A DNA stretch of 64,000 bases from Symsagittifera roscoffensis (taxonomy: Eukaryota), in NCBI RefSeq assembly GCF_963678635.1, contig NC_087064.1, positions 32,681,028 to 32,745,027 on the forward strand. The letters run 5' to 3'. Of the stretch, positions 1,151 to 28,429 are shown piece by piece. Within the stretch, counting starts at the first letter, position 1; every line of letters begins with the position of its first letter. The notes under the pieces were generated by a model. It ran no database searches. It was given only the letters and a program-made list of their open reading frames with translations, and had not been told where the DNA came from. The position numbers were made by a program, and so were the translations under genes.

Positions 1151-3599
1151 TCCATTTTTCTATATTTATGGAATAGTACAGCTGCTAATTGAGAGGTTAC
1201 TAGCCTTGATTAAGTAGTTTAGTCCTAGTGGCCCGAGATGGTGGGGCTAATTTATCTGGTTCAAGAGCTTTGCTTTGATGTTTTGATTGCAAATTGAACC
1301 TCCATTGTTGATGAATTTGTTTAATTTAATGGCAGGTTTTTTAAATTTTTCTCACAATACTACGTTTAATTGCACCAAAAACATTATTACTTATTGCACC
1401 AGATATATCAGCTGCTTTTGGTACTTAAATTCTTGAACAAACTCTGACAAGTTTTTTAGAATCAAAGAGGCTGCTGTAGAATTATTTATGCCATAAATTA
1501 GCGAAAGAAATCAATATATCACTTTCTCAATAGTTGCAACTGAGTTGCACCTTAACTTTTTGTTAATAGTTGCTACACAAATAAATATTTGCTACTCCAA
1601 CAGTAACGTAAATAATAGTTGCTACTCAAAACAACTGTTTCCTGTGAACTGAACTTCCGCAAGGATCTCTGCTAGGGTCGCTGAATTTTTTCGCCATGAC
1701 TTCATTGCTTGAAGTTGTCTTGAAAACAAGTTCTGCGTACGTAAGTAACGCAAACAATTGTTTTTTTTTACGTTTCTGTGAATAAATCTGAAAGTACGGC
1801 AGTTGTTCAGTAAGGCCTAGATCAAGTTGTAAATTGGTTCAAAAATGCAGGGTTTGTTTTAAAAATGGAGAAGAATAGAACTTATTCCTTGCGTGTAAAT
1901 AGCCGATAAAATGCCAAAAAGGTTTACCTAACTTCACCCTACAAGACGTTTTAAGTTTTTTTTGGAGATTTTAGGAGTTTCTCTTGCTGATAATGTGCTA
2001 ATGGCCGATGAAATAAAACGTTTATGCGAGAGTTTTTACCACCTTTTGCTGAAATTGTATTCCGTTTCCATTTGATTTTTCCTCAGCTCTGATATTGAGA
2101 CATGCTAGCCAGATCTAGTTCTTTCAAGACCGGATTACTGTTATTGTTTGTACACTCTCGTCAAAAAACATGACTCAGAAATACAACGGTCAACGTTCAC
2201 AAAGCAGTGCATGACGATTCGTCTACCAGATGACAATTTCAAGCAGCATCAATTTCGTACGCGATTTACATTGGCTACCTGTTGAGCAAAAGATTTCTTT
2301 AAAAAAGTGTAAAAAGTGTATCTAACGCGTAGTTTTTTTTGCTCCTGTTAAAATATTATCTAATTTAGCTCATAGACTGAAAAGCAGCAAATCAAATTTC
2401 AATCAAATTGTTCTGACAAAAGCAACAACTGCGTATGAAAGTTAAAAAAGCAAACACAGATATATTTTTGAAGGCTGTATCTCTGGAATGAACTGCCAGT
2501 GAAATTAAAAACAGAAAATCTTACAAAAAATTCGAAGCTAGTCTCTAAACACGGCTGTTCAGAGTGTAGGTATACGCTGGCTCAGAGCTATTGTTTCTCA
2601 GTTATAGAAGGCATTTATAAACAAAAGTGTTATCTCATTTTTTTAAACAAAGCTTTGCAATGTCATGAGCAATGTAATCCTAGAAGGATGATAAATCTTA
2701 AAGTTTTGCCTGTTTGATATAAGCATGAAAAGACGAAATTGTGTCTTTGGAGAGTCTCTGGTTAACTGCGTTGTCCTTGTAAAAACGCTTTCTATCAGTT
2801 GCACAGGTGGAACAGATAAAACTCTAGGTTCAAATAAGGTGTTCAAAGAGTTTGTTAATTTTGGAGTTCAGAAACTTGTTATCATGGGTGGCACAATCTG
2901 AATGACAGAAGAGGAAATAGGTCAATATCAGAGGCATTCATTGCTGAATACATGGAATATGTCGTTTCAGAGACATGAAATTCAGAGATGGGTCCGTCGA
3001 TGTAGCTATAGTATCCTTAATTGGCGTAAGAGGTTGCTAACGAAAAATTCGTCGAAAAGCCGGTGATATCGACTACGTGCAGCAGCATATGGCATTCCAT
3101 ATGCAAAGACGAAAATTTTTGGTTCAGAAAGGATAAATATATTCCATGATAGGCTTCACCCCCACCGGTTTCTATACTTATTTTTTTTGGGTTTCTTACT
3201 TATTATATGGGTTTTTCTTTCTGTTGGTTCTTACATGGCTTCCTCAATGGAAGCAGACATGAGCTTCTTTTAGAGGATTGTAAATTAAAGCCTCAGTCTG
3301 GTGCGCCTTGCTTTAGTTATCGATGCTCTTTTATGAATGGTCGCATGAGATCTCCCAATTTTCATCTATTAAAGGAGTATGCGATCCACGATTCATAAGC
3401 AAATCATTGCGATCCAGGACTCATATTGATTTTGAATGGACAGAAAAATTTATTCCACAAACGAAAGCAGTTGCCAAATACGAATGAATTCCAGAATTGG
3501 TGCATGAACAACAAGATAATGTTGATGATGCTTAACTTCCTGTATTATTTCGAGGTTATGCACGAATAATTTTTCAGTCTCAAGTAAAGATCTATCCAC

Positions 3600-5050
3600 C
3601 ATAGAATTTACTGGTTGTCTAAAGAATAGACAATGTCGTTTCAAAATACTCACGAATCAAATTTGAGCATAATATTTCATAGGGGTCTACAAGCTTCCCC
3701 TATTGTCAAAACATATTCTTCTCATTTGTTTAAATATTTTTTAATGGAAAGAGAAAATTGTTTTCATTTTTATCCGTTGTCTATTTTGTTGTCTGTTTTT
3801 TAATCAGGGTTGTACTGGGATATTGCGTGAATATCAAGTGCTTTTCTCCAGTAAGTTCTGACAGTAGAAGTTAAGCCAGTTGTTACTGTTTGTGCTGTCG
3901 GTGAACTGTTAGAGATCCGTTATTTTTCAAATGAATTCAGCTGTTACATTGGCCCTGTTCGCTTCCTTTGAGGTACCGATCCCCTGGTTTTGATTTGAAT
4001 GTGGGTCAGTTATGTTTAGTTTGGAATAATACTGAAACTGAAAAGATTGTATTAACGTCGTAAGTAGACAGCCTGAGAAGTCATTTCGCAGTATTGATTT
4101 TCATCAATGCATAGCATAGAAAAGTTTGGAATAGTTTTGGAGTGGATTTTATATGTCTAATTCTGTCTCGTGGAATTTCAATTTTGCTCGTAACGAATTT
4201 CTTTTCTTTCTCGTTGCTCTATTTTCGTGCGGTGGAGTTGTAGAGTACAACCTTAATCTTCTTGACCAGATTTTCCTCCGGTATTTCTTGACAGTGTTCT
4301 AGATGGTTGTGTTGGGTTATAATTTGTTGGCAAAAGTACAAATACAATCGAGATCTATCTCTGTTATTGAGTAACAACCTTTTATTAGGCAAATTTTGTT
4401 ATGACACCCGTTGCTCTAGTAGTACGCGATTTGGGATCTTCTTTCAATCTTTGCCCTTGCAGTTTTTAATCTGTCATCGCCGAATTTACGTACAATGAGG
4501 GATGTTGTTGATAGCCGTCTTGGTTTACCAGCCCATTTTTTTGAAGAAAATGTTTATTACTTTTTTCTTATGGTCTTCCCACTTAGCATAGTTTACATTG
4601 TCAAATAGGTGGTGGCCGTATGAGGCGGATGGCACGATGATACAGTTAAACGATGTAGTCGCAGTGGTTAAGTTTATTCTTCTTACGTCGACTATTGTGT
4701 CTAGTGTTTTTGTAGCGATTATGGCTTCTGTCTCAAGTGACCTAGATGGCTCAGGTTTGGGATTGGACTTACGTATTACCCCAAGATGATTATTTGTGTT
4801 TACGAACTCAATTAATGTTGCCGTCGTACTCACAGTAGTCAGACTTTTTGATGCGTCCGCCTCTGTAGAACTTCATAGTTTTGGTTTTACCTGGGTGCAC
4901 AGGAGGAGAGTTTGCTATGCAGTAGTGTTTCACTTTTTGTAGGGTTACGCTTATGATCTTAATGTCTCTGGTACCTATGGCTAGGTTGTCGGCTTAAAAA
5001 ATGGTTTAGGCTCCGTAGTTTGTGAGCATGCAGTCTAGATCAGCTTTAAA
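3600..5050 (-). mobile_element. Degenerate LINE fragment, copy A of a local duplication (RT-like ORF 4525-4833)
   Basis: About 85% nucleotide identity to 5200-6900. ORF 4525..4833(-) is homologous to the C-terminal half of ORF 6191..6799(-). Confidence 0.5.
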
Positions 5051-5199
5051 TAGTGAGAATAGTAGGGGTAAAAGTTTATGCCCTTGCGCAAGTCCGATGT
5101 TTTTTGTTATTTGTTCTTGCGGGAAATCCTCTGTTTAATTCGATCGTGTTCGAAATTATCATTTTGTATAGTTTTTCAAAGAATTTAGTGGAAATTCCT

Positions 5200-6900
5200 A
5201 GGTTAGCTATTTTTTAGATCTATCTACCATAGACTTTGCTGGTTGTCCAAATAGAAGACAATTTAATTTCAAAGTACTCACGGATCAAGTTTGCGCATAA
5301 AATTACATAAGGTTCTACAAGCTTCCCCAATAATAAGAACATATACTTCTCATTTACTTAAAACTTTAATGAAAAGAGTAAATTGTTTTCATTTTTATCA
5401 GTTCGTGTTATACTGGGACATTGCGTAAATATCAAGTGCTTTTCTCCAGTTAGGTCTGACAGTAGAAGTTAAGCCAGTGTTACTGTTTGTGGTGTTGATG
5501 GATCGTTAGAGATCCCTTATTTTTTAAATGAATTCAGCTGTTACATTGACCCGTTATTTTTTAAACGAATTCAGCTGTTACATTGACCCTGTACGCTTCC
5601 ATTTGAGGCACCGATCCCTGGTTTTGATTTGAATGTGGGTCCAGTTGTGTTTATTCTGGAATATTTCTGAAACTGAAAAGATTGAGATAGTGTTAAGTAG
5701 ACAGCTTGAGAAATAGTTTCACAGTATTAATATCCATCAATGTATAGCATAGAAAAGTACAGAAAAGTTAGGAATAGTTTGGGAGTGGATTTTCTGTCTA
5801 ATTCTGTCTCATGGAATTTCATTTTTTGCTCGTAACATTTTTCTCATCTTTTTCGTTGCTATTTTGGGGAGGTGGAGTTCGTAGAGTACAACCTTAATCT
5901 TCTTCATCAGATTTTCCTCCGGTATTTTTGACAGTGTTTTAGATGGTTGTGTTGGGTTATAATTTGTTGACAAAATTACATAAAAAATCGAGACGCTATC
6001 TGTTATTGAGTAACAACCTTTTATAAAGCAAATTTTGTTATGACACCCGTTGCTCTAGTAGTACGCGATTTGGGATCTTCTTTTAATCCTTGCCCTTGCA
6101 ATTTTTAAACTGTCATCGCCGAATTTATGTACAATGAGGGATGTTGTTAATAGCCGTCTTGGTTTACCAGCCCATTTTTTGTAGAACATTTTATTTACCT
6201 TTTTTCTTATGGTGTTCCCACTTATCATAGTTAATTTCGTCAAATATGTGATGGCCGTATGAGGCGGATGGTACGATGATACTGTTAAACGATGTAGTCG
6301 CAGTGGTTAAGTTTATTTTTGTCAGGTCAACTATTGTGTCTAGTATGTTTGTAGCTTTTATGGCTTTTGTTCTCAAGTGAGTTAGATGGCTCAGAGGTTT
6401 GAGATCGGACTGTAGTATTACCCCAAGATGATTGATTGTGTTTACGAACTCAATTTTGTTGCCGTCGTACTCACAGTAATCAGAGTTTTTGATGCGTCGG
6501 CCTCTGTAGAACTTGATTTCTTTGGTTTGACCTGGGTGCACTGGAAGAGAGTTAGCTATGCAGTAGTATTTCAGTTTTTCTAGGGTCGTGTTTATGATGT
6601 TGTTTTCTCTGGTACTTATGGCGAGGTTGTCGGCTTGAAAAATGGGTTCGGCTACGCAGTTTGTGAGCATGCAGTCTAGGTCTGCATTAAGTAGTGAGAA
6701 TTGTTGGGGCAAAAGTTTCTGCCCTTGCGCAAGTCCGATGTTTTGTGTCATAGGTTCTTGCAGGAAACCCTCTCTGTTCAATTCGATCGTGTTCGACATA
6801 GTTCTTCATATAATAATGCTTGCCGCCGTGAAAGTAGATATATTTTTCCTGAAGCCATGTTGGGGTTTTTGATAGGATCTGCAACGATTCTGACCATACA
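5200..6900 (-). mobile_element. Degenerate LINE fragment, copy B, with RT ORF 6191-6799
   Basis: The 202-aa minus-strand ORF contains RT motif-C-like IFQADNLAIS (a YADD-type motif) followed by LPVHPGQTKEIKF. This is typical of non-LTR RT. Confidence 0.55.
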
Positions 6901-7822
6901 GTAAGGCGTTGGTGTAATATATGGGAGAAAGTTTTTGATTTTGTTGGGAGGATCGCTATTCCTCTGTAGTTGTTTAGATCGGATTTGGTGCCTTTTTGTT
7001 GTACAACGGAGTTATATTTGCTTTTTTCCAGGATTTCGTTGATTTATGAATCTTGCATGTTTCTTTATCGAACCATGGTTTCGATATGCGTTTCTTTGGA
7101 GAATTTGCTCTTTTTATCGGAAGTTTGATCTACTGTGTGGTTAAATTGTCTTTTTTATTGAATTGATAATACTTTGTGTTCCAGAATCCAGTGCGGCGTG
7201 GTCGCATTTTGTTTTAGCATGCGAGACTTTTTTTCTCGATGGGTTACAGGCGTGGTTAATTTGAATGTTTGTGCTCAGTAAAATAGTTTTTTTATGATTT
7301 CTAGGTCTAGAGGGGTAATACTGAAGCACAGATTAATTGTGCTGTTACCTCGCATGCAGCTGCAAATAATTTTTTGTGGGTTGTTCATGTAATATATATC
7401 CTTTCGCTTCATTATCTCCAATAGCGCATGTGTTCTGGTAAATTGAATGTCCAGGTGATAGTTGGTCTCCGGCAAAAAGTATTTCGTTGACTACTGATGA
7501 GTGCTTGAGGGCTGTTGAAATTTCTCATAATATATCCTCTATTTCACTCTTGGTGGCATTATTGTTAGTTTAGTTGGGTCAAGGGATATGCTTATGATAC
7601 TCTTTTTTGTAGTTTATTAAGGCACGGTCCGCTAGACTTTGGCTTAATGCAATAGCGATTATCCCGATAGGGCGTCTTTTACACCATTTCTTGGCGGGTC
7701 AGTTTCTGCATATAAAGTTTGAAATCTCTAATTCTTGGAAGCTCATCGTTTCTGTTAGCAGAAGAATGTCATTTTCTTTAGTTCGTCTGTGAGTTTAGTA
7801 GCTAGTTTTGTTCCTTCGATGT

Positions 7823-8359
7823 TCAAAAAGAGGAGCGATAGGTTCTTGCGTTAGTCTTGTAGTCATGCTTGGTTTTTATATTTGTTGGAATGATTTTCCT
7901 TTTGCGGATGAAGTGATTCATTTCCGGTTTCTTATTTAGTTTTTCTTTTAGCGCAGTTCTCAGCTGAAATTTTTCTTGCTGTTGCTGTTTGTTAAGGTCT
8001 GGGTTGATGAAAAGCTTCCGATTTGCTCGTGTTCGCATTTTTCTGGTGTTTTTCAGGATTTTCAATTTGTGTTTTGTGGCTTTAAACGTGATTCGGATCA
8101 GTTTTTTGTTCTCTCTGCCACCGAAGGCTTTCATTGATTCATTTGGCTCCTCTTTGAAGTTTGTGTCTAAAGTCATGCAGATCTGGACGACATCGGATTT
8201 AGCCTGGTCACTAATTGAGATGCCCGAGATCACGATGTTCTTTTCACGTTCCCTCTTGCAATTTTTCTTCAAGATTGATACCTTTGAAAATATTTGAATA
8301 TAGCAGTTTGTTCGATTCTTCATTGCTGGGAATTCTTCGATACGCTGATTTGTTTTCAT
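7823..8359 (-). mobile_element. LINE ORF1-like (Transposase_22-type) fragment
   Basis: The 178-aa ORF includes LIRITFKATKHKLKILKNTRKM...RKLFINPDLNKQQQQEKFQLRTALKEKL, which resembles the conserved C-terminal domain of L1/CR1-family ORF1 proteins. It has the same orientation as the RT fragments downstream. Confidence 0.35.
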
Positions 8360-9374
8360 ATTAACCTCTTCAATGCTGACCTTCTGTTTTTTTCCTCATT
8401 GGATGATTTGACTATCAGTTTGGTGACCTGTTCTTTGAGCTTTTTGAGCGTTTGTAAGATCCCAACTCAACTGAGTGTCGACTCTAAGCAAAAACAGCAC
8501 ATGGAGGTCTTTTTCTGGCTGCTGTAGGTTATCCGGTATCCACACTGATGGCCAGATTCCGCATTTGCTAAGCATTCTTGGTAGTGATGTTCTCATTTAT
8601 TCGGTTGGTTCGTAGTTTCCTTTTTCCGGGGAATTGGATTTGTGCTCGATGAGGTTGTTTGACTCATTGTTTATAAATAGTCTTGAAGTCTTAATTTTCC
8701 TCATTGTCTTGAAGTCTTAAGTTCATAAGGCTGAAAGTATCTAGTCTCTAAGGAAAGAGCTTGGATCATTTTGAAAGTTAAGAGGTAGTATAATTGAAAA
8801 ACGTTTTTGTTTTGACAAATTTAATTGAAAAAAGCACTGGTTTTTCCTTCAGTCATACAACTGAGTTTTGACCTTAAGTAAGAAAATTGTTTATAGTTTT
8901 TCAAGTGACTACAATTTTTTTATGGCAGAACTTAGATGATTCCCAGTTTCCAAATGTTTATACCAAAACTTTTATCCGTATTACTTTCACGCTGGTTGAA
9001 ATTTTATCTGAATTAAATTATTTTAGTGAGATTTTTATTCGAATTCACCGGAAGTTTAGTTGATAACAAAAACGTAAGGTGAACCGAAGGTTTTCATAAT
9101 AAAAATACTTAAAATTCAAATGGATTATTTTGCCCTCCTGTTGAATTTGTGACTACTTCCAATTTCAAAACTTATCTAACTCAGGTTGGCGAAAACCATC
9201 GTGAATCACTATGATAATGACCTGTAGTCTTGTTTATGATCCGTTCGTAGTGTTTGGATGTATGTTTTGTCTGAGTTCAATATGCGCTGCCAGTTTCATT
9301 TTAGCTGAATTAATCATTCAATTTGCGTCAATTTGTTTTGAATCATCGCTAAGTTCACGTCGCTATCTTTCAGA

Positions 9375-9500
9375 ATGATATTTGATGGTCTGCAGTTTGC
9401 ATTTGAGTTTTCGACCAAAGATACGTTCGGCTTTAAGAACGAAGTCAAAACCCTCGTCAAGGACAATGGAGGGATTGTGTCCTACATTGTCAGCAAGCAG
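9375..9500 (+). CDS. PARP4: PARP4 (vault PARP)-like exon 1, BRCT N-terminus; start codon at 9375
   Basis: MIFDGLQFAFEFSTKDTFGFKNEVKTLVKDNGGIVSYIVSKQ aligns with human PARP4 MVMGIFANCIFCLKVKYLP..KKLQTDIKENGGKFSFSL. Donor CAG|GTACTG at 9501. An acceptor-like CTTTCAG sits immediately 5' of the ATG. Confidence 0.8.
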
Positions 9501-9619
9501 GTACTGTGCTAAAAATAATTTAGACAATCTAGAATTTATTAAGACAATTAAGAATTTCATAATTTGCTCAATACGAAAGGAATTTTTACGCATCTTCTTG
9601 AATTTTTGAGATTATTTAG

Positions 9620-9815
9620 GTGTTCGCTTTGTTGATCTCTGACCCTTCTTTGTCGAAGAACTCCAAGTGCAAGAAAGCACTTCATTCAGGCTTCAGGGTA
9701 CTAGATATCTCCTTTGTGAAGAAATGCATTGAGAGTGGCTGTGTCCTGGATCCAGGTCCCTTCAGTCTTGCCCTGTTGCGTTCCAAAGAGAGTTTCCAGG
9801 CTGGAGTTATCGAAG
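9620..9815 (+). CDS. PARP4: PARP4-like exon 2, BRCT C-terminus
   Basis: Acceptor TTATTTAG|G. VFALLISDPSLSKNSKCKKALHSGFRVLDISFVKKCIESGCVLDPGPFSL matches the human BRCT continuation (THIILDNADVLSQ...HIANPDFIWKSIREKRLLDVKNYDP). Donor GAAG|GTTGGT, phase 1. Confidence 0.75.
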
Positions 9816-10774
9816 GTTGGTTAGATGACATCTTTTAGACCTTTGATGCGATAGTTTCATGTCGCATGTTTCATAGTTTCTTTTTTTTTTAAATGTGTAC
9901 TCGATAAAACTTAGCTGGAAAACATTATTTTTGTGTCTCTATCAAATTTTACCGAGCTTTTTATGGTAATGATAATCTTTACTTCCTCTTTGAAGGAGTT
10001 TTAGCTAAAAGGATTTACCCAAGGTTCCTGATTAGTAGTTCTAGGAAAAGTTTACCGGGTAGGATAGAATGTGCTTGGGTACTTTAGAATGGGTATTTGG
10101 CACTCATCACTTTAGAGTTATGTGGGTAATTTGGTATTATGTAGATTGGTATATTGTTGATTTCTATATAGGGTATAATGGTATAGGGTAGAAGGAGGGC
10201 TTAGAATAGATTGAAGCCGGGTAGACTGTCCTGCCGTCATAATTATGTAAGAATTATTAGAGATGGGCCCTGCACGCATTTTTGAAAATACCGGATACAG
10301 GACAATTACTTTTGCGAAGCGAGTGTATTAGTACGAACCTTCTTTTTTTCTAACCTAAGTCGCAAACATTGGTGCCAATTTTAAGGCACCTTTACTGCTT
10401 TTTGATAGCATGTGCTTTGACATTCAAATAATAATAAGTTAACACAGTTGATGCATTTTTAATTCATCAAATTAACCGAAAAAAAGTGATTTGTTTCAAA
10501 CAACATAACAGTAATGAAAACTCGATTTCAGAAATTTTTTAACTCAATATATCTCGCAATTTTTTTAAATACATAATTTGTACATAATGTGGCTTTGTGC
10601 TTTGCGATTTGTTACATGCAAAGTTAGTGTGGATGTCTTGAGCTTGTTATATTTCAAATTATTACTTGAAAATTGAGTCTGTTTGTATTTGGTGCCACTT
10701 TGCTGAATGGCATTGGCAATTTATTAGCATATGTAGCTGCTTTATTCGTGACTAGTATTTGTCGGTTGTTAAGC

Positions 10775-10975
10775 TTGCGTGGCTGAGTGGATAGTGCGTG
10801 AAACTCAAAATCTCTTGATTGCATTAGGGCGCAAATTCGAATCCTACACGTAGCCGAGCTTTTGCTAATTCGAGGCTTATTTCTTCTTTTTCTGATTTCA
10901 CACGATAGAGCTGCTTTTTGGTCGTTTTCTCGCAATCGTTTGTGAAGCGCAGCTTCGCTTCTGTGTAAAACTTAC
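10775..10975 (+). mobile_element. tRNA-derived SINE copy (tRNA-like head, body, conserved hairpin tail)
   Basis: Head GTGGCTGAGTGGATAGTGCG...GCAAATTCGAATCC has A-box and B-box-like motifs. The tail is ...TTGTGAAGCGCAGCTTCGCTTCTGTGTAAAAC. It shares body and tail with the copy at 59580-59765. Confidence 0.6.
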
Positions 10976-11552
10976 CAGATGCACCGGATAATAACCGGAT
11001 ACCGGATAGATGCCAAATCGATGAAATAATTGATCGAATTCGATGTACATGAATGCAACAAGTTGATATTGCGTATGATCATGATGTAATTTGTTTTGAT
11101 ACACATTTTCCCACATAGTCAAAGAGCTGATGCTTTTGCTGGTAATTTTACAACTGGTATTTTTACTTGATAGTCGTCTAAATTTTGATTGAGTCATCTT
11201 ATACTCTAATTTTGATTTCAGCGTTTTTTTTTTCGAATTTTTTTTCGAAAAAAAAAAACGCGGTCAGTATCTGGTAATTATCCGGTGCAATTTTACCATA
11301 TATCCGTGCCGGAATCAGACAGTTGCCGGATAAACGGATATCAATTCCAGATACCACTATTCTGGTACAGTTCGAGCAATTATACAGCAAGTTACTAAAA
11401 GCGTGCATATTGCACCTAAAATGGCGCAACCTTTGTCTAGTTTATATCGGCTCATTTTCGTGTTTCCATATATACTGCAGCTGATTTGTTTAAATTCAAG
11501 AAAAAATCGCTCGCTGTTCTTCAATTTACAAAATATCTGTTTTTTTTTTTAG

Positions 11553-11623
11553 TTTGTTCTCCGGACGTCGGACCTGTTGAGACGGAAAAAGAAGAAAGTG
11601 TGTGTTTGAAAAACTTGCGGTTG
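11553..11623 (+). CDS. PARP4: PARP4-like exon 3 (short linker exon, putative)
   Basis: Poly-T tract then AG acceptor at 11551-52. The phase-1 entry restores the frame (..VIE-V-CSPDVGPVETEKEESVCLKNLRL). Donor TTG|GTGTAC is phase 0 and matches exon 4. There is no homology support. Confidence 0.4.
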
Positions 11624-12030
11624 GTGTACATGCTAATATACCATGTAATTGAAAATGGTTCGAGTTTAATCGTTTGTGAGGTGTTAGTTATGATGTTGTT
11701 TAGGTCGTACAAACTGAAACTCGATGATTTAGACCCTCACACGTACGAGTACTTGAAAGGTGTAGTTCTAATGGTAAGCTACATGAGTTATAAATATACA
11801 AAACGAAGCAAAAAAGTCGCCCATAAACTTACTACGCATCAATTTATGTCTCTGCTTTGAGAAATTTGGCGCTTCAATTGCAGAAGCAAATTGCGATTAC
11901 CAATGAAAATAGCTGAGCTAGAAAACAACAATTTTTTAAAATGTGATTTTGGCTTCAAAAAACTGAGGTTGTTTGGAAGGTTTTGAATTATATTAAGAGA
12001 AAAAAAATCGAAGATTCATAACGCTTTTAG

Positions 12031-12357
12031 AATGACGACAAACAAATTGCTTCGGTAGAAATTGACAAAATCAATGCCGTTTTTCATCTCTCGGATGGTT
12101 CCACGATCGACACCCCATTTGCGGTTATGAAAATCGAATCCATGATAGTTGATTCGATCGAGTTCTCAAAATGCATAATGGATGCTGAAATTTTTCCGTT
12201 TGAAAGTGGTCGGAAAGCTGTGGGATGTTACGCCGAGCTAATTCGGGTCTTTGAAGAGGACAAAGACATGAAGTCTTATTTCGGATGCAAAGAGTTGAAC
12301 GATACAACGAGTGTATCGACTGTTGCGCAACTAGTGGGATCACAGAAGTTCAGACAG
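12031..12357 (+). CDS. PARP4: PARP4-like exon 4 (BRCT-to-helical linker), GC-AG donor candidate
   Basis: Acceptor TTTTAG|AAT. A 109-codon stop-free frame runs NDDKQIASVEIDKINAVFHLSDGS...VAQLVGSQKFRQ. It ends at CAG|GCAAGT, a canonical GC-donor context. Cumulative length puts the next exon at residue ~241, matching the human PARP4 helical domain start at 242. Confidence 0.5.
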
Positions 12358-12630
12358 GCAAGTTTTCATGTATCAGCTGAATTTTCAAATTGTATTCAGT
12401 GTGTTTGCTTCCCGAACATGTATGTATCTCAAAGAAACTCGCCCGTCTATTCAAAAAACCATTTCTAGTACTTTCCTTTTATGAGGCTTTTAGAGCTCCG
12501 TTTTGCCAAATGTTTAAAAGATGTTCATGCTCACTTTTTTTTGTTATTACAGTCGATGAACGTAGTTCAGACTCTTTTATAGGCCGTGATGATTTTTTTT
12601 GAAAACGCTCCAATATTTTAGAGAAGTTTA

Positions 12631-12837
12631 TGCATAGATATTGAGGCGAAATGTCTTTTGGCTATTATTTTGCTCAAATTTACGTTTTTGACGGAAATTT
12701 TTTATATGATTGAAAAGATACATTACATTTCAAATTCGGAAAATTATATCTTTTCGATCATATAAAAAAATTTCGTCAAAAACGCAAATTTGAGCAAAAT
12801 AATAGCCAAAAGACATTTCGTGTCAATATCTATGCAT
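12631..12837. repeat. Near-perfect ~90-bp-arm palindrome (foldback) in PARP4-like intron 4
   Basis: TGCATAGATATTGAGGCGAAATGTCTTTTGGCTATTATTTTGCTCAAATTTACGTTTTTGACGGAAATTTTTTATATGATTGAAAAGATA is mirrored by its reverse complement across a ~30-bp centre at ~12735. Confidence 0.8.
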
Positions 12838-12989
12838 AAAATTCTCTATCATGTATTTAGCCGCACTATGCAAGGGATCTCTACCCTTATATTCGCGATG
12901 TGTTTGAGGTTACTTCATTATAGTTTGATTCAAAATATCGCCATAAGTGATGTAGTATTCCTTTCTTCAGTCCGATTCTATCCCTGAAT

Positions 12990-15500
12990 TTCACACTCTT
13001 CCGAAGTTTGTTTACTTGTCCGCTTGTTCGGATAAAAAGTCTTGAAATTGGACAAACAAAGATATAGGTAGAATTTGAGTCTTTTAGAAGTAAGTTCTTG
13101 TAATTTACTTTGCTTGAGTAGTCATTTTGGATCCACTTAAATCACTTTTTCTGTGCATTTTCTAATACTTCTTGGTTTTCCAATACCAGCAGGGACTTCC
13201 TTATAGGACGTCAGGGACAACCATTGACTTGTACAGATTTAGTTTGGTTCTTGATTCTAGTCTTGATGAGCTTCTTTTCAACATAAAGAGTACTTTTAAA
13301 GCTTTAATCACTGCAGCCTTGTTATGTGTATCCCACTCCAGATCAGCTGATATTGTAACACTCAAGTCTTTTTGAGTGTTCGTTCTCTCTATTCTTTTGC
13401 CAGAGAAGTAACAGGCATTTTCGAGTCTGTCATGGAAATGTGTAAGCATTTCTTCATATTCAGAAGTACTTTATGTTCTTCGCTCCATTTTTTTCCTCTT
13501 GAGAGATCGATTTAAAATCTAAGGCTTTTTGTGTCACTTGAAATTAATTTTGCGTCATCTGCGGACATCTGGGAAAGAGTTTTTACTTACCTCTGTTAGG
13601 TCGTTTTTATATATAACAAATAGCAGACTTGCTAGAATTGACCCTTGGGGCACTCCGCTTGTTACCAGAATTGGTTTTGATAATTCACCACAAACTTTAA
13701 GGCTCTGTTATCTGTTGATTAGATATGATTTCGTTAGTTTAAAAGTCCGCCCTCTCACCTAATTTGAACAGTTTCGACATTAGTATGCCGTGATTAACAT
13801 CATCAAAGGTTTTTTCGTAGTCAGTGTATATGATGTTGACTTTGCTCCCATTGTTAAGCGTTTTGAGAAACGTGGAAAATTGGTTTTTGGTGTCTGAACA
13901 GATAAATGAACAGACATCGTTCGAGATTATTGCCTATAATTTTCTACTTCTGATTTTGAGTCCCTCTTGTGGAGTGGACTCACAATTAATTTTTTCCAGT
14001 ATTTTGGGAAAATTTCGGTTTGTTTGACTTTATAAATTATTTGACTAAACGATTTACTTATACTTTTGCACAGCTTTTGTATAGCACTCATGGGAGATGG
14101 TCTGATCCACTAGCCCTTCTTGTTATTAAGTCGGATAAGATGTCCATGAATCTCTCGGGCGATATATCGAAATCATTAAATGGTTGCATAATCGGTGGTG
14201 AGTTATCAGGTTCAAATGCCGTTGATTTGTGGAAGATTTTGAGAATACTTTACAATGAGTTGGAGGATCGTTTGCGCAATCAGTTTTATAATGAACTGGC
14301 ACTGAAATGAGTGTTGTTTTTAAATTTCCAATTTTTGATAGTATTTAAATAAGTTGATCTGGTGTCCGCCAGCTTTGATTCATTTTCATATTTATCCTCA
14401 TTGATCTCTTCTTATGCGTCCTGTGATTTCTTGACTTTGCGCAGGTCTTGTGAGTGTTTGAGTTTGGCTGTGTTTAGTTTCTTTAGCATATGTGATGTTT
14501 CGGGTTTTATCCGTGGGGATAATATTGAGCGATGTTTTGTTCTACGCGGTGTGTGTTTCAGTACAATGTTTTTCAACCACACATACCATTGTTCGATCAG
14601 AACGTTTATATTACTCTAGTATATTCCATTGAATGGATAAGATTCAATGTCTCGCGAGATACTGCCGAAATCAGCTTAAGATTAGCTTATAGTTGCCGAC
14701 GAAACTCCAGCTCTTTAATAGTTTGTAACAAAATTCGTCTGTTTGATTTTGAGTATTATTGAGTTGTGGTTTGACCTTCACTGCTTTTTTGCAGAAAATG
14801 ATTTCGGTGTTCGTGTTTGTAAATATCAAGTCTAGTATCCCAGTTGATAATGCCGGGAAACCTACCAATTGCTGCATATCGTTTTCAAAGAGAAGGTAAA
14901 TCAGTTTTCCAGTTTCAGTATCGTTTAATTTATAGTCTGACCAGTCAACGTCGCTTATGTTGAAGTCACCATATATCGAAGTTGTATTATAATTTTTTGA
15001 TAGAATTATTATCTCAAAGATGTTGAATACAGTAGTATTGTGATGGGACCAGTGGGTTGATGAATCAGATTATAAGTACGTTATTGTCCTTATGTTTTAG
15101 TGAGCATGCGAATGTTGCTCCTGGTATTGAGTTTTGTAGTGCTAATTCTTCGGATATGAAAGTCTTTTCCATTGCATTGAGACACCCACCGTGTTTTGAA
15201 ACGAAATTGTTTTCTTTGCGATCAGGTCTGTATAGGGTATATTTTAGAAGAAAGAGCTCACTGTGATAAATAGTTGGTTATAACCAGGTTTCTGTTATCA
15301 TGAAAAAGTCAACCAGGCCAGTATTTATAAAGTTTGTTAGTTTTGTTATTTTTTCTCGATTTATGAGGCTACGAATGTTGAGTCCAAAGCCTTTCAAGTA
15401 GTTGTCGGTGTTCCTAATTGAAAGGTCAACCATTTAAGATGGTCTTTTTTTCGTAGATATAGCTTCCTGTCGCGAAGGTTTTGTTTTTAGTGACTCTCAG
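12990..15500 (-). mobile_element. LINE fragment; RT thumb region in ORF 13201-13449(-)
   Basis: The minus-strand ORF gives ...IERTNTQKDLSVTISADLEWDTHNKAAVIKALKVLFMLKR, which is the KDLGV.ISSDLKWD.HI-type RT C-terminal signature of CR1/L2-like elements. The rest is decayed. Confidence 0.45.
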
Positions 15501-15849
15501 CATCAATTAGCCGATGTCGTCCCAAGTCATTGTTTTCCATTTTAGCTTCTTCTTTTGTTAATTCTTTGCTGAAGAACGCAGGAGGATTGTAATGCTGCTG
15601 ATGCCAAGATTGCTCTCTACTTCCATTTTTTTGGTACCTTCAGTATGATTATTCTGTTTTTGTCGTCTCGTTTTTTCCCAATTCTTATTAGGTCGCTGAT
15701 ATCCGTTTCTAGACAATATTGCTTCAAGACTTACAAGATGATTCATTTGAGGACTTCATACGGTTTCTTGTACCAATAATTTTAGAACTCTTCATCAACT
15801 TCGCTTGGTACTCCGAGTCAAAGGCTCAAAGATTTCACCAGACTGAAGA

Positions 15850-15965
15850 ATGGGTATTGTCTGGGACCCTGAATCTTTGAAAAACTCAAAGACTACCCCA
15901 GTTTGGCATTTTTTTAATATAACTTGGGACCCTGAATCGAAGACTCAAAAGAGTACACCAAGTTT
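15850..15965. repeat. Short tandem duplication (~48 bp x 2)
   Basis: TGGGACCCTGAATC...AAAGACTACCCCAGTTTGGCA occurs twice head to tail. Confidence 0.6.
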
Positions 15966-18555
15966 AAATAAAAGCATTAACTCTATTGATCGATGCTTTC
16001 TTGAAGTCTTCTTTGCTTGGCCTTCCTTCTGCTCTTCGAAGGTTTCCGTTTGTTTGGGTAGAAGTGTAGGGTTATTGCAAGTTGTCGTAGCTCTTGGTTT
16101 GCAGATTGATGCAGTTGTCTGTAAGATCGTATGACACTTCCATCCAACTTTTCCGTGCTGGTGAGAGTGTGTTCACTGAGGTTGATAACTGGAACGTCAA
16201 GCGTTCTCCAATCTTAGAAGATGTAAGTCGATTTCTCTCTTGCATTAAACAGTCGCGTAGAGATTTGGTAACTTTTGAAGGTTGGTGATTGGTTCGTGAA
16301 ACTTCAGGGGCTTAAACTCGTTTGAAGGATGTGCGGTAGTGGAATTATATTTGAGGTCGTGCCACAAAATAATCTTTTTATCTTTCTCAGGAGCTGAAAA
16401 TAAATTTTTTTCCCGGTACAGCCACGTGGTAATTCAAATTTAGCGTGGATTCACTTTATATTTCGTCAATTTTGTCTTTTAGCGATTTTTCTTGCGTGTA
16501 GCATAATTGTAATGTGAACTTGCTTCAACAATATGTCCCATTCAAAATCAAAGAACGAGAAAAAAAGGAAGGGAAGTCGGAGGAAAAAAAGGAAAAAACT
16601 AATCTGAGTTGTCGACTTTATGATGTATTTGACAGTCTCCACAAAGTGAGATGCCCAGAACAGCAAACAGCGATAATCAATGTAACAGAATAAACTCAAA
16701 TTATAGGTGTCACAAGTGGCTACCCCTTAGCATTTGTTTTTATCTGAAAACAAACTATTTAATAGTTTTTTTTTAATAAACAAACCATGTAACAAAAAGT
16801 GATGGGGGTTTGAAAATCCTCAATTTGGCTAACTTGAGATAATTAACGCGCATTATTTTGGTTCTAATAACTCACTTAAGCGGCAAATTAAATTGTTCCA
16901 AATATAATTAATGCAAGTAATTTGGTCTTTTATCAGGGTACGAGACGCTAAATACTTTCCTTTGAAATCAAAAAGCGTATAGTCAGATAACAGTGGACAG
17001 AAACCAAAAAGATTGTTCTTCTTTCAGGGCAAAGCTCTGAAAGTTCCGACCGCCCCTTAATCCATATCGAGTAGTGTTTGGGAAAAGAAAATATTTTGAA
17101 ATATTGAGTTTTGGGCAATATCAGTGATCAAGTATTAAAGTTTGAGTCGTACGAAATTTATGCAATCGATTATGTAGCCTCATTTGAATTGGCAGCGATT
17201 GTGTGCGGGATAATTCGCCACGCTTAAATAATTCGCGTTACGCTTTCAGAATTATGGATAAAATGTCCAAAGCGGGCATAAATTAGTCCAGAGCATGCCC
17301 AAAGAGCCAATTTTCAAACTCGCAAAACTTTATAAAAAATGATCGGAAGTAAGATATATATTTTTTTAAATTTTGATTTCAATAAGGCAATATCTTTAAT
17401 GGAGATGAATTTTTTTTTGTAAAAATTTATAATTTCAATTGCTGAATTAGTAATTGAATTGGCTAACAAATACCACACCAAGCTTAGTTAATCCATTTTA
17501 GCCGAAAGTCGGAACTAAAAGCGTATTTCAGTGAGCAATTTAAAAGTGGGCTTCGCCCTGATTTACGAGCAGTCTTGTTTCTTTCACAACTTGCCTTAAA
17601 TTGAATGACCACTTTGAACTCAGTGTTATGCCAGAAGTATTGTGTTTTCGAAGAAGCTTCATAGATTGGGATTGATTATTGCTGTCGTCAGACTTTTTTC
17701 TGCAATGTATTTTTTCTTCTTGATTTGTGCTCCTTTTGTCGCTTTTTTCTTTGTATTTGCTAGATGCAGCTGTATCTCTGGATGCAGTTCCACATATATT
17801 GTGCGCTAATAAATTTTCTGAATATTGGTTCACACAGCTCAAGTTAGCTCCTGAAATGTTTCCTGGATTTTTTTTGGCATTTTCTCGTTTCTTTTGCAAA
17901 ACTAAGATTGTTTTTAACATTCTGTGTTACCTTAAACTATTGATTTTCTGTTGAATTATGAAGGTGTGGTCGATTTCAAATTGGTGCTTTTTGGCTGCCA
18001 AATTTACAATTTTTTGTTTCGACTATTGAAAATGGGGAGTAACTTTGTATTCCGCTGTTTTTATTTTTTTTGTTTTCTACGCAAAATCAAGTACCATAAG
18101 TAATCATCGGACTGGGTGTTGAGTGATATATCATATTAAAGCACTTACAGTCGTGATTCGAACCACTTTGAAAGCTTTCGAATTTTCTCCCCGTTTCGAG
18201 AAAAACCGGTTAAGAAATTTTCAAAAAATTAAAAAACTGCAACTTGAATTTTTTTCAATATTCAAGTAACTTCTCTAAAAATATTGTTTTTCGATTTGCT
18301 AATTTTATTATGACTGTTGAATATACCTAATCTCCTTCTATCACACCACGTCGAAAAGAAACGACTGTAATTTGAATATAACTTTGTTGTATATTGTACG
18401 ACAATGGTCGGAACACTGTGCCACTTGCACAGTAACCGACTATCCTTGTTAAATATCAAATTGTATCTTTATCTTTACAATTATTTTATACTGAAACCTG
18501 TCAATTACTTTTAACAAAGTCCATTCTGTTTTAATTGAGACAGTTTGTTTTCCAG

Positions 18556-18930
18556 GTTATTCTGATGGATGACAAAAACTCGATGCTGGATACCAGCATC
18601 ACGGAGCTCATGCAAACTCTGTATGGAGAGTCTCAGGCGACATTTGACGGGTTGCGCAACGGCTCGAAATCCGTGTTTGAGTTCAAACGGGAGACCGTAA
18701 ACGAAGCCATGGGATACTTGAAACAACTTAAAATAATATTACAAGGTGCGAAATTGAAAAAACAGGAAGCAATAGCAGGGGAGTTGAATCGCGGGGACAG
18801 TGATGTGGAGTCAGGTTCAGATTCGTTCAAGGTTGCATCTTTGACCAAGAAGTTCTTCCAGTGCATTCCTCACAAGAGAACATTTGTGCTTGACTTGAAA
18901 ACTGTAGTTCACAAATTGGACATGTGTCAG
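18556..18930 (+). CDS. PARP4: PARP4-like exon 5, PARP alpha-helical regulatory domain
   Basis: Acceptor TTTTCCAG|GTT. ...SDSFKVASLTKKFFQCIPHKRTFVLDLKTVVHKLDMCQ matches the PARP1 helical-domain motif RFYTLIPHDF...VEMLDNLLDIEV. Donor CAG|GTCTGC is phase 0. Confidence 0.85.
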
Positions 18931-19407
18931 GTCTGCAATTTTGTTCTCTGTTTTCGTTTTGTTTTTCCGGCAACATAACGAAGCCCAATTATTCAACAGT
19001 CTCGTGAAACATATCATGATGCAGAAAGAGGTAGCAGATATAAACCCTGTCAACCGTAATTTGGCGTCCAAAAGTTGGGTATTATCAGAAATTATCAGAG
19101 ATTTTACTCAAGTAGTACAGCGTTTAAGCAATACTTAAAAGCTAATCATGGAACGTGTAACCCAGGCATTTTGGGGGTTTTCGAGTTTCTTTTTTTTTTC
19201 ATTGAATTCGAGTCTTTTTTGAATGAAAGACTATCTAATGGAAGGTTCTGCCAATTGCAAGGCTACCATAGCGTTTAAAAATTCGATTATTACAGTCTCC
19301 TGGAAAGCATGGATAACGGTTTTTCCGAAACTCTTATTACGTTAATCGTAAAACGTTTTTATTTATGTTTAGTAATTACGTTTATCAAATATGAATTCTT
19401 TTTGCAG

Positions 19408-19688
19408 GTTATTTTGGACATGAACTCAATTGGAGAGAGCACAAATTGGGCCCCCGTTCCCCCAGTTATGTCGATGTACAAGGCTCTGGGAGTGCGAATC
19501 ACGCCACTTCCTGCTGTCGAACTAGAGGCTCTTTCACAATCGCTACAGTTTTCGAACAGGGCAGAAGTAACTCAGGTGTTTGGACTTCTGAAACCTGCTC
19601 AGATGTGTTCGTTCAAGTCGACTGGAAAGGAAGTGCAAACATTGTATCACGGAACAAGTCCTGCCAACTTGATCGGAGTTTTGTCGAG
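19408..19688 (+). CDS. PARP4: PARP4-like exon 6, N-terminal part of PARP catalytic domain (H-G-S)
   Basis: Acceptor TTTTGCAG|GTT. ...TGKEVQTLYHGTSPANLIGVLSR matches PARP1 LWHGSRTTNFAGILSQG and human PARP4 LLHGSPVQNIVGILCRG. Donor AG|GTAAAT is phase 2. Confidence 0.85.
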
Positions 19689-19744
19689 GTAAATGCACTT
19701 AAGAAAATCAGACTCCCTCCTCCACAGTTGTGCCTACGTATTTA

Positions 19745-22700
19745 ATAGATTTACTAGTAAAACTTTTGTTTTATTTGTCCGTTTGCAATAAAACTTGGAT
19801 TGTGGTTTAAGTAATTGAATCAAAACGTGTTTGGTTTCTCCTGCTTACGTATTATGTTATAGTATGAACTCTCTTTTTTTTCAACCTAAGTCGTAAATAT
19901 TGTTGCGACGCAAATATTTTTGCGACAAAAAGTGTTCATTTTGAAAGTGTTCATTTTGATCAATAACCGGCTATTAAGTACAGCCAATACTAAGGATTTT
20001 AACACAGACTATTCTATTACAAATAGCACTTAAGCTTCAAGCTATCGTGGATCTGTAGCGTAGAGGTAGGAAAGCAGGCCCGCAACAATATAAGAGGGTT
20101 CGAACCTGGGCAGGGTCTGATATTTTTAATGAAATTTTTCGCGCACTAGCTAAAATGCGTCCGCTGTATAAATTGAGGCATGTTAGCTGGTAAATTTCTC
20201 TTTTTTTTCAAATTGACTGGTACTTCTAATGCGTCATAATTGGCTAGCGTCACTTAGCAATTATGTAGTTTCATAATTGGCTTGCGAAATTTTGTAGACT
20301 CAAAGTTTTACTCATTAAGATTTTCCCAGTACCGTTATCGGTCATTTTTTTTCTTGGTGTGTGCGAAGTGCAACTTCGCCTCTGTGTAAAAAGTGTGAAA
20401 CAATTAATGACACAATGTGATCGATGCTTGCGAAAAATAGGGAAGAAAAGAGAACCAAAATTTCGATGAAGTTTTTTTTTTGTTTTATTTGTTCGTTTGC
20501 AATAAAACTTGGATTGTGGTTTAAGTAATTGAATCAAACGTGTTTTATTTCTCCTATTTACGTATTTTGTTAAATAGTGCTGAGTTAAATTAACCGGACA
20601 AAACGCGTTAAACTTGAAATTTAAAACCCGTTTTTCTCAAATTGGGTTGAGTTTAGGTGAAAACTTATGAAGACAAAACTTGCTTAAAATTTTAGCAGAA
20701 TTAATATGGTGTAATTTGTTTTGCGAATTTCAGGCCCAAAATTTTACCCCAAAAATGGGTTATGTTGGCTTTTCTTAGTTAATCAAAATTTACGCCAGAA
20801 ATACCCAGTCGATCACAGAAATAATTATATCAAAGTGAGCCCATTACGTAGCCCAACAAACTTTATGAAGGGTGTTTTCTCCAAAATATTGTATAAGTTA
20901 ATTTATTTTTGTTTGATAGACAATTTTTAAACAATTTGCAATTTTTTTTGGAGAATATACCCTTCATAAAGTTTATTGGACTACGTAATGGGCTCACTTT
21001 GATATAATTATTTCTGTGATCGACTGGGTATTTTTGGCGTAAGTTTTGATTAACTAAGAAAAGCCAACATAACCCATTTTTGGGGTAAAATTTTGGGCCT
21101 GAAATTCGCAAAACAAATTACACCATATTAATTCTGCTAAAATTTTAAGCAAGTTTTGTCTTCATAAGTTTTCACCTAAACTCAACCCAATTTGAGAAAA
21201 ACGGGTTTTAAATTTCAAGTTTAACGCGTTTTGTCCGGTTAATTTAAATCAGCACTGTAGTATGAATTGTATTTTGGTGTAATATGAACTCTCTTTTTCC
21301 AACCTAAGTCGCAAATATTAGTGCTCTTTTTGAAAGTGCTCTTTTATTGCAGTATATGCATAAGATTAATAACCAGCGATCAAGTACAGCCAATGCTAAG
21401 GATTTTAACACAGACGATTATATTACAAATAGCCCTTAAGCTTCAAGGTATCATGGATCTGTAGCGTAGAGGTAGGAAAAGAGACACGCAACAAAAGAGA
21501 GGGTTCGAACCGGGGCATGGTCGGATGTTTTTAATGAAATTTTTCGCGTACTAGCTAAAATGCGTCCGCTCTATAAATTGAGGCATGTTAGCTGGTAAAT
21601 TTCTCTTTTTTTTTTCAAATTGACTGGTACTTCTAGTGTGTCATAACTGGCTTGCGTCACTTTGCTATGATGTAAGTCTCATAATTGGCATGCGAAATTT
21701 TGTAGACTCAAAGTTTTACTCATTAAGATTTTCCCAGTATCGTTCTCGGTCATTTTTTTAGTAATTGAATCAAACGTGTTTAAGTAATTGAATCAAACGT
21801 ATTTTATTTCTCCTGTTTACGTGTTTTGTTATAGTATGAAACGTATTTTGGTATAGTATGAACTCTCTTTTTTTCAAACTAAGTGGCAAATATTGTTGCG
21901 ACGCAAATATTGTTGCGACAAAAAGTTTTCGTTTTGAAAGTTTTCTTTTTGATCATTAACCAGCAATTAAGTACAGCCAATTCTAAGGATTTTAACACGG
22001 ACTATTATTTTACAAGTGGCACTTAATCTTCAAGGTATCTTGGATCTGTAGCGTAGAGGTAGGGAAGCAGACCCGCAACAAAGTAAGAGGGTTCGAACCT
22101 GGGCAGGGTCGGAGGTTTTTAATGAACTTTTTCGTGTACTAGCTTAAAGGCGTCCGCTCTATAAATTGAGGCATGTTAGCTGGTAAATTTCTTTTTTTTT
22201 CAAATTGACTGGTACTTCTAGTGTTTCATAACTTGCTTGCGTCACTTTGCTATGATGTAGTCTCATAATTGGCATGCGAAATTTTGTAGACTCAAAGTTT
22301 TACTCATTAAGATTTTCCCAGTAGCGTTATCGGTCATTTTTATCTTGGTGTGTGCGAAGTGCAACTTCGCCTGTGTAAAAGTTGTGAAACAATTAATGAC
22401 ACAATGTAATCGATGCTTGCGAAAAATAGGGAAGAGAAGAGAACCCAAATTTCGATGAAGTTTTGTTTTGTTTTATTTGTCCTTTGCTATAAAGCTTGGA
22501 TTGTGGTTTAAGTAATTGAATCAAAACTTATTTTATTTCTCCTGTTTACGTGTTTTTTTATAGTATGAAACGTATTTTGGTATAGTATGAACTCTCTTTT
22601 TTTCGAACTAAGTCGCAAATATTGTTGCGACGCAATTATTGTATCGAAAAAAAGTTTTCATTTTGAAAGTTTTCTTTTTGATCATTAACCAGCAATTAAG

Positions 22701-27690: not shown

Positions 27691-27841
27691 TTTTTAATAG
27701 GAAGTTTTGTTCTCCTGAGTTACAATGCAATGGAATGAGATCTTAGGCGTTCATCAAAGTGTAAACTCAAATTTTAACTTTCTTTGGTAAATTTTTGGCT
27801 CTTTCAACAGTCCAAGTTACTATCTATGAAATATGTTTTAG

Positions 27842-28293: not shown

Positions 28294-28429
28294 GTGAGAT
28301 TTTATGGGAGATATTTTTGTTGAATTTTGAAGTTCTGGCCTTAATTGCCAAAAATGGTTGCCTGTGTTTGCCTTTTTTTCAATCCAGAACTAACACTGAT
28401 GACCATCAGTAGAGAATTTAGAAAAAGGG

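Follow-up and report, generated by a model that had tools for sequence, protein, structure and literature searches.

The 17-base hairpin GCGAAGY-GCA-RCTTCGC occurs in 11 copies in the window, the whole 64-kb stretch of DNA analysed here, and our data support the view that non-autonomous mobile elements carry it as a conserved cis-element at their 3′ end. An earlier sequence-only reading had proposed such a conserved 3′-end element, and this was upheld. The hairpin is probably the 3′-terminal palindrome of short, non-coding HINE-like elements, i.e. non-autonomous derivatives of Helentrons, in which, by analogy with Helraiser, it most likely serves as a terminator on single-stranded DNA. The assignment to HINEs is structural only, since we found neither a Rep/helicase nor a reverse-transcriptase element as autonomous partner.

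Hairpin copies and element anatomy

The sequence-only reading had listed a canonical tail, GCGAAGC-GCA-GCTTCGC, at 10945, 59725, 58070 and 62485, together with T:A forms in satellite monomers. The motif was indeed present at or within about 10 nt of each claimed position, always on the + strand, but the exact C:G tail was absent: the consensus form has 0 occurrences in the window and each dispersed copy deviates from it, including all four that had been listed (Table 1). Searching the window with GCGAAGCGCAGCTTCGC and allowing up to two mismatches resulted in 8 matches, all on the + strand, where shuffles predict 0.00. GCGAAGTGCAACTTCGC, the T:A form, matched at exactly the five intact array positions of Table 1. 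Stem decay is common, and most copies in the window are mismatched. A literature search for the motif sequence returned nothing relevant.

Table 1. Positions of hairpins, element parts and neighbouring features in the window.
Feature	Position	Strand	Details
A-long, complete 660-bp element	10306-10968	+	four copies (L064-L066, L069) align
A-long 5′ subterminal inverted repeat	10308-10318	+	ACTTTTGCGAA, after TT
A-long box A/B-like block	~10772-10855	+	inside 10306-10968
A-long 3′ subterminal inverted repeat	10929-10939	+	CTCGCAATCGT
Hairpin (A-long)	10942-10958	+	GTGAAGC-GCA-GCTTCGC; T2 opposite G16; predicted DNA fold shifts to a 6-bp stem
A-long terminus	10959-10966	+	TTCTGTGT
Tandem array, 11 units of B element + ~174 bp flank	19764-27680	+	self-BLAST, 5′ module matches, short-unit junction, flanking exons
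First B element of array	19852-20392	+	hairpin 20363-20379, then CTCTGTGTAAAA
Array hairpin, T:A	20363-20379	+	GCGAAGT-GCA-ACTTCGC; exact match
Array hairpin, T:A	22354-22370	+	exact-match search
Array hairpin, T:A	24240-24256	+	exact-match search
Decayed sixth array hairpin	26126-26142	+	GCGAAAT-GCA-ACGTCGC; pairs 5:13 and 6:12 broken; missed in the earlier reading
Array hairpin, T:A	26857-26873	+	exact-match search
Array hairpin, T:A	27564-27580	+	exact-match search
Foldback element, 680 bp	20576-21256		93% self-complementary; interrupts array
Solo B element, internally deleted	37020-37306	+	box A/B-like block lost, both ends kept
Solo B 5′ repeat	37021-37032	+	TACACAAGCAAA; 12/12 complementary to 3′ repeat
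Solo B 3′ repeat	37266-37277	+	TTTGCTTGTGTA
Solo hairpin, decayed	37280-37296	+	GCGAAAA-GCA-ACTTCGC; missed in the earlier reading
Solo B terminus	3′ of hairpin 37280-37296	+	CTCTGTGTTT
3′ end fragment	58039-58091	+	conserved TTTTTGCCGTTTTCTCGC, hairpin remnant 58066-58082, CTCTGTGTT
Hairpin remnant	58066-58082	+	GGCAGGA-GCA-GCTTCGC; loop and 3′ arm kept, 5′ arm broken
A-short, complete 345-bp element	59405-59750	+	collinear with L063 15727-16078
A-short 5′ repeat	59407-59417	+	ACGCTGGCGAG
A-short 3′ repeat	59712-59722	+	CTCGCTAGTGT
Hairpin (A-short)	59725-59741	+	GCGAAGC/GTTTCGC; G6 opposite T12
C-type 3′ end	62440-62500	+	GTATCGCGCAAGTGGT + GCGAATC-GCA-GCTTCGC + CTTTGTGTT
Hairpin (C-type)	62476	+	GCGAATC-GCA-GCTTCGC; T6-C12 mismatch
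LINE reverse-transcriptase C-terminal fragment, tandem duplicate	3588-6799	-	83% identity between copies; without motif
PARP4 (vault PARP)-like gene exons	18535-36417	+	PARP_reg 18535-18975, PARP catalytic 27795-28409
PARP4-like gene, further domains	28798-29175, 34550-35041, 35170-36414	+	VIT (first two), vWA (third)
MULE ORF	31712-32086	-	in PARP4-like gene intron
FLYWCH ORFs	32212-32544, 33816-34166	-	in PARP4-like gene intron

The 5′ arm GCGAAGC (10942-10948, and every copy) conforms to the GCGNAGC mini-hairpin DNA motif, which is extraordinarily stable as single-stranded DNA and has been reported at initiation sites of single-strand phage replication (PMC13037366). GCGAAGC is present in the 5′ terminal module too (TTACACTTGCGAAGC), and the motif is lost in the T:A variant GCGAAGT. 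The loop is variable across families, as the C-type ends at L064 8980, L065 5566 and L066 3327 keep the stem and carry TCT or TCC in place of GCA. An alternative hairpin could form at the 3′ end, TCGCAA-GTGT-TTGCGA (10929-10950, and the A-long copies of L064 and L066); it takes up the four initial bases of the main stem, and the two hairpins are mutually exclusive. This second hairpin is not conserved in the JAAUXW elements described below.

Further copies were retrieved through a spurious antisense ORF across 10657-10971, which matched 17 paralogous ‘proteins’ in the same assemblies; six of these paralogue records provided about 120 kb of extra sequence (loci L064-L069). The complete elements of the window (A-long, solo B and A-short) begin with TT followed by ACAC(T/A)(T/A)GC(G/A)A, an inverted copy of this 5′ 11-mer ends 2–3 nt before the hairpin, and each element ends in CTCTGTGT, 8–9 nt past the hairpin. 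In outline, a few T precede an 11-nt subterminal repeat and an interior that varies; the inverted copy of the repeat, 2–3 nt, the hairpin with its 7-bp stem and 3-nt loop, and CTCTGTGT with 1–4 additional T or A make up the rest. The 5′ module of the window, TTAC..GC.A..AGC..TGT.TTAGTA.GAA...CTAAGTCGCAAA, was found at 10306, 37020 and 59405 and in every array unit, and it aligns with the JAAUXW 5′ end. The 660-bp A-long form is present at five unlinked loci, where the copies in L064-L066 and L069 match the window from 10305/12 to 10966/70 with 84–89% identity between unrelated flanks; these five copies set the 5′ boundary at TT|AC. Younger A-long copies start with TT-ACACTTGCGAAGC, and their 3′ region reads CTCGCAAGTGT-TT-GCGAAGC-GCA-GCTTCGC-CTCTGTG. 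For the 3′ end fragment at 58039-58091 no 5′ end was found, and the C-type end at 62440-62500 has only its last ~37 nt in common with other C copies.

The 11-nt end repeats differ in sequence from family to family (ACACTTGCGAA in A-long, ACACTAGCGAG in A-short, ACACAAGCAAA in B and ACAGTTGCGAC in JAAUXW elements) and are matched inside each element, with 8–11 of 11 positions complementary. Pairing every element with its own end gave the maximal complementarity sum, a value reached by 3 of 120 permutations. The same complementarity was seen in the newly fetched copies (L064-L066, L069 and L065_B) and amounts to 9–10 of 11 in JAAUXW. In a first inverted-repeat test, which compared the 45 nt upstream of each window hairpin with 1.5 kb, only the pair 37021/37266 was significant; the repeats became clear after the 5′ ends had been placed by cross-copy comparison, and in younger copies. 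No target-site duplication was detected across the element flanks, including those of the 660-bp form, with 5.8 of 8 positions matching in own flank pairs versus 5.5 in mismatched pairs. TT ends the 5′ flank in 20 of 20 cases and T starts the 3′ flank in 16 of 20; TT is the putative insertion point.

The intronic ‘satellite’ of the window is one hairpin element with its flank, amplified in tandem within the PARP4-like gene. The tandem T:A copies reported earlier are present, but what had been taken for monomers are two kinds of unit, ~575 and ~730 bp long, within a higher-order repeat with a period of 1888 bp (1.89 kb). Units of ~730 bp, which carry the hairpin, alternate with units of ~575 bp that are truncated just before the hairpin, so that it and the rest of the 3′ end are missing. 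The first B element of the array is homologous to the solo copy at 37035-37303 and to a full B copy at L065 3346-3887 (83%). We looked up four window ORFs for longer contigs or other arrays, with nothing on record. The foldback family that interrupts the array is dispersed in this genome, with further members at 58481-58791, L066 3337-4045, L067 1634-2244 and L063 17767-18239.

The window DNA is eukaryotic and AT-rich (36% G+C). The named proteins closest to the PARP4-like protein are of brachiopod, bivalve and annelid origin (38–43% identity), and an identical copy is found on the long-read metagenome contigs ERZ25071366:ctg21409l and ERZ25878734:ctg22781l. Downstream of the vWA exon, at 38652-39672, there are two adjacent tandem repeats, one with a 162-bp period (2.8 copies) and one with a 148-bp period (2.4 copies). 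Degenerate ORFs of mobile elements cluster at 45059-53781, among them a retrotransposon gag-like ORF at 46313-47179; the minus-strand ORFs at 48622-53781 gave no Pfam match. L063, a contig from the same assembly, is 94–97% identical to 14 kb of the window (1891-16151) in reverse orientation; it represents a diverged haplotype or else a segmental duplication of recent origin. Its extra family-A element (15712-16075) lies just past the homologous block, and the window has no matching sequence there.

Neighbouring independent hairpin copies share their orientation in about 14 of 14 cases (6 of 6 on the + strand of the window and at least 8 beside the index copies in L063-L066 and L069), and at four of five loci this orientation is sense to the nearest host exon. 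Co-orientation would follow trivially if the loci were blocks related by paralogy; we rejected this for all comparisons but two, L063 with the window and L067 with L068. Selection against an A-rich antisense strand in introns offers a mundane explanation of the co-orientation. That Helentron-like elements insert strand-specifically seems quite unlikely to us; if integration were the cause, a parallel would exist with the single-strand HUH transposons of bacteria, whose insertion is directed by the replication fork, and strand-specific insertion, if true, would be consistent with the GCGNAGC mini-hairpin DNA motif of the 5′ arm.

Conservation in a second organism and the loop-closing pair

A pattern search of the JGI metagenomes with GCGAAGNGCANCTTCGCCTNTGTG resulted in 60 contigs, all from JAAUXW01, with 61 copies. 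These contigs represent a different organism, since they have nothing in common with the window except the element ends. Their flanks diverge directly after CTCTGTGT(T), which puts the end of the hairpin 8–9 nt before the element's 3′ end. The sequences upstream belong to at least five unrelated families. About 19 copies have 450 nt or more of sequence upstream; of these, 11 carry a palindromic 5′ module, T(2-6)-ACAGTTGCGACAGCAACTGT, and 2 more carry it in part. The module (T(2-6)-ACAGTTGCGACAGCAACTGTATTTGGGTCGG) is on the same strand as the hairpin and 249–538 bp upstream of it, with unrelated interiors in between, and its AGTTGCGAC is the reverse complement of GTCGCAACT just 5′ of the hairpin. 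Both end modules are retained between the two organisms. The family F1 (11 of the 61 copies) has another 5′ end.

This conservation bears on the possibility that the hairpin is a functionless palindrome, which recurs through the common descent of repeat copies. Uncompensated mismatches in most old copies indicate that there is no constraint after insertion, as such an explanation would predict. We nevertheless regard it as highly improbable: the 17 nt and the 3′ and 5′ modules around it persist in both organisms, whose elements have nothing else in common, and across at least eight families, and a scan for the motif pattern in 596 Gb of prokaryotic genomes plus viral contigs gave 0 matches, so none by chance.

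Some contigs have unusual end arrangements. At the contig end of L013 (1-38) there is a perfect palindrome with a 16-bp stem, AACACAGAGGCGAAGC-GCA-GCTTCGCCTCTGTGTT, which resembles two 3′ ends placed head to head round one hairpin and could be real or an assembly artefact. L024 and L033, both from JAAUXW01, contain two tandem 3′ end modules 77 nt apart, the first an F1 end, the second the final ~53 nt of F2 with the hairpin; read-through of a terminator would give a structure of this kind.

The paired change from C:G to T:A at the loop-closing pair, on which the sequence-only reading had built its argument, is real. All six array copies have it, and so does a family-B copy on another contig (L065, with an intact GCGAAGT-GCA-ACTTCGC). 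The six array hairpins are not independent, because they are units of one tandem array descended from one B element. The solo B copy (37020-37306) has A at position 11 and a decayed 5′ arm. T:A is therefore a family-B trait that was fixed before at least three separate insertions, and it counts as one evolutionary event.

The further claim, that this covariation is evidence of selection, was not supported statistically. We ran the covariation test on 39 aligned tail copies from the two organisms, and it was not significant. Only one of the seven stem pairs is changed on both sides, in a single lineage (the array rows), the other six pairs are without any double change, and the count of pairs changed on both sides was equalled in 409 of 500 shuffles. 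The covariation score was higher than in shuffles (4 of 500), a value that shared ancestry alone gives. Position 7 is the cytosine of a CpG, and T opposite G is found there in 6 of the 61 JAAUXW01 copies and in one family-A copy of this genome; the states of pair 7:11 in the 61 copies are CG 52, TG 6, CT 2, CA 1 and TA 0. A second compensated pair, 2:16, is C.A in L067 and T:A in L068, in a stem that is already broken and at two CpG sites. That a family continued to transpose with a double change that leaves pairing intact is compatible with a requirement for the stem. The compensated closing pair of family B fits a terminator on single-stranded DNA and equally a stem made of RNA.

Retroposon or DNA element

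In the sequence-only reading the hairpin was the tail of a SINE, with an RNA structure recognised by the reverse transcriptase of a partner LINE. Eel UnaL2 and UnaSINE1 are a stringent LINE/SINE pair of this kind with a common 3′ stem-loop. Several of our observations would suit such retroposons, be they SINE-like or deletion derivatives of a LINE, in which the stem-loop is read as RNA by a stringent-type enzyme: the last ~40 nt alone are common to many unrelated upstream sequences, the box A/B-like blocks of the window families are in sense orientation, and the terminus TGTGTAAA resembles the short terminal repeats of L2-type elements. A stem of RNA would also tolerate the U.G at 10942 and the G.U at 59725, with predicted energies of -8.5 and -7.6 kcal/mol and a full 7-bp stem, and CR1/L2-type insertions are often without target-site duplications.

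Still, we judge this explanation unlikely. The 5′ terminus is conserved and complementary to the 3′ subterminal region, which is unexpected for Pol III SINEs, and the 5′ ends of full-length copies are identical at five loci. The box-like block lies 170–470 nt inside the element rather than at its 5′ end, and two JAAUXW families have it antisense to the hairpin. Neither an A-rich nor a microsatellite or other simple-repeat tail is present. ARAGORN detected no tRNA, and Rfam none at gathering score, in the window and the loci; the only Rfam tRNA signal was a 22-bit antisense match in L061. We found no LINE with this end. The LINE fragments of the window are without the motif, their 3′ region has no similarity to the tail, and the reverse-transcriptase fragment as a query gave 2 matches only. 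The missing tRNA, the internal position of the block, the conserved and mutually inverted ends, the lack of target-site duplication and the missing tail thus leave the name SINE unsupported, and the architecture points to recognition at the DNA level rather than by a LINE reverse transcriptase. Apart from the LINE fragment there is an AP-endonuclease-like fragment at 14674-15069 on the minus strand, with an Exo_endo_phos_2 match below the Pfam cut-off.

According to the published definition, HINEs possess subterminal inverted repeats (subTIRs), 12–15 bp long in mite HINEs and located 2–4 nt from the 5′ end and 38–60 nt from the 3′ end, a palindrome of 5–10 bp that lies 8–35 nt from the 3′ end, borders with T runs, a TT target and frequent tandem repeats (PMC4067079, Thomas et al., 2014), and they lack a target-site duplication (PMC4067079; PMC7492417). 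In oyster Cg_HINE the subTIRs measure 11–12 bp, the 5′ repeat has an inverted partner, and whole-element tandem copies are often 3′-truncated (PMC7492417). The end structure that we measured agrees with this definition. The 5′ repeat begins 2 nt from the end, and the 3′ repeat is ~38–40 nt from the 3′ end, counting the repeat itself, 2–3 nt, the 17-nt hairpin and 8–9 nt. The palindrome follows the 3′ repeat, 8–9 nt from the point where the flanks diverge, and the complementarity within each element corresponds to that of subterminal repeats. The end sequences themselves appear to be new. A central microsatellite or internal tandem repeat, which is frequent in HINEs and not obligatory, was found in none of the A, B and JAAUXW elements. 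Pfam scans of long ORFs and a helicase-motif scan detected no Rep/helicase or endonuclease ORF in the ~350 kb examined.

Other observations count against the HINE assignment. The F1 family has its different 5′ end, and 58039-58091, 62440-62500 and the C copies have just the last ~40 nt in common, which is also the pattern of 5′-truncated retrocopies. The ends are not the canonical TC...CTRR of Helitrons. Moreover, Pol III box-like blocks occur in four different interiors, and the HINE model calls them cargo without explaining them. The orientation of the tRNA-like block is inconsistent, antisense to the hairpin in JAAUXW01 families F3 and F4 and sense in the window families; this suits the cargo of a DNA element, which can sit either way round.

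The termini, neither TC...CTRR nor common to oyster HINEs, and the fact that no partner is known would also suit a DNA element with asymmetric ends from some other class, possibly one not yet described, for example a MITE that moves by cut-and-paste and has subterminal repeats, or a relative of the single-strand HUH transposons in eukaryotes. The hairpin would then be a protein-binding or cleavage-guiding structure instead of a terminator. Further in its favour, the 3′ 15 nt (GCTTCGC-CTCTGTGT) resemble the inverted 5′ end (ACAC-TT-GCGAAGC), so that a true terminal inverted repeat is present too. We find this fairly unlikely, as cut-and-paste superfamilies produce target-site duplications of fixed length, none of which was seen here, and the hairpin at one end, the T-run borders and the tandem 3′-truncated copies are better suited to derivatives of Helentrons.

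Possible mechanism and comparison with known systems

As HINE-like elements, these sequences would be mobilised by a rolling-circle mechanism, which we propose by analogy with Helraiser. A Rep/helicase supplied in trans would nick at the 5′ end and displace one strand, on which the hairpin would form and signal the enzyme to stop and cut; for this the stem would have to pair and the loop-closing pair would matter. Inserted copies would then decay neutrally. Neutral decay would account for the many mismatched stems in the window, and the need for a paired stem and closing pair for the fact that family B changed both sides, from C:G to T:A, and still transposed. The predicted DNA folding energy is -7.5 kcal/mol for the consensus (z = -3.3), and the T:A form folds at -6.7. 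The 3′ hairpin of Helraiser terminates transposition; a swap of the stem sequence keeps ~90% of activity, and a change of loop and closing pair is as bad as deletion of the hairpin (PMC4778049). The compensated closing pair of family B agrees with these data, in that pairing and the closing pair matter and the sequence of the stem does not.

The elements hold a lesson for annotation. Pol III box-like blocks combined with a 3′ stem-loop mimic a SINE, while both ends, taken together, here indicate a probable rolling-circle DNA element. They also provide a worked example of such an element seeding a tandem array of 7.9 kb in an intron.

Stringent LINE/SINE pairs (UnaL2/UnaSINE1 and the CR1/L2-dependent SINEs) have a conserved stem-loop near the 3′ end and varied bodies, and the stem is needed while its sequence is partly free. 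A short conserved stem-loop near the 3′ end of non-autonomous repeats is what our elements have in common with them. They differ in their Pol III head, their 3′ end of short tandem repeats and recognition at the RNA level, and in having no conserved 5′ end complementary to the 3′ region.

Canonical Helitrons (Helitron1, Helibat/Helraiser) carry a palindrome of 16–20 nt about 10 nt from the 3′ end, which was found by experiment to be a transposition terminator. The lack of target-site duplication, tandem and 3′-truncated copies and the capture of foreign sequence are features in common. In contrast, our elements end in TTAC...GTGT and not TC...CTRR, possess subterminal inverted repeats, and have T-rich borders in place of an A|T target. 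An identity with Helitron1 was rejected on the basis of the termini, TTAC... and ...CTCTGTGT instead of 5′-TC and CTRR-3′.

The HINEs, i.e. DINE-1 of Drosophila, HINE-Mo of a mite and Cg_HINE/pearl of the oyster, differ from our elements in several respects. The ends described here have no sequence similarity to the end modules of oyster Cg_HINE, as compared with the supplementary sequences; tandem repetition concerns the whole element with its flank, in place of a central microsatellite or an array inside the element; Pol III box-like blocks are found in the interiors; and we identified no autonomous Helentron. The likeness lies in the ends. Both groups have subterminal repeats of ~11 nt, the 5′ one 2 nt in, and a 5′ repeat that is palindromic or has an inverted partner (ACAGTTGC-GACA-GCAACTGT; ACACT...AGTGT). 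They also have in common a short palindrome after the 3′ repeat, a few nt from the 3′ end, borders of T runs with no target-site duplication, and heterogeneous interiors between conserved end modules in association with tandem arrays. The current understanding of HINE-type elements is unchanged by these results.
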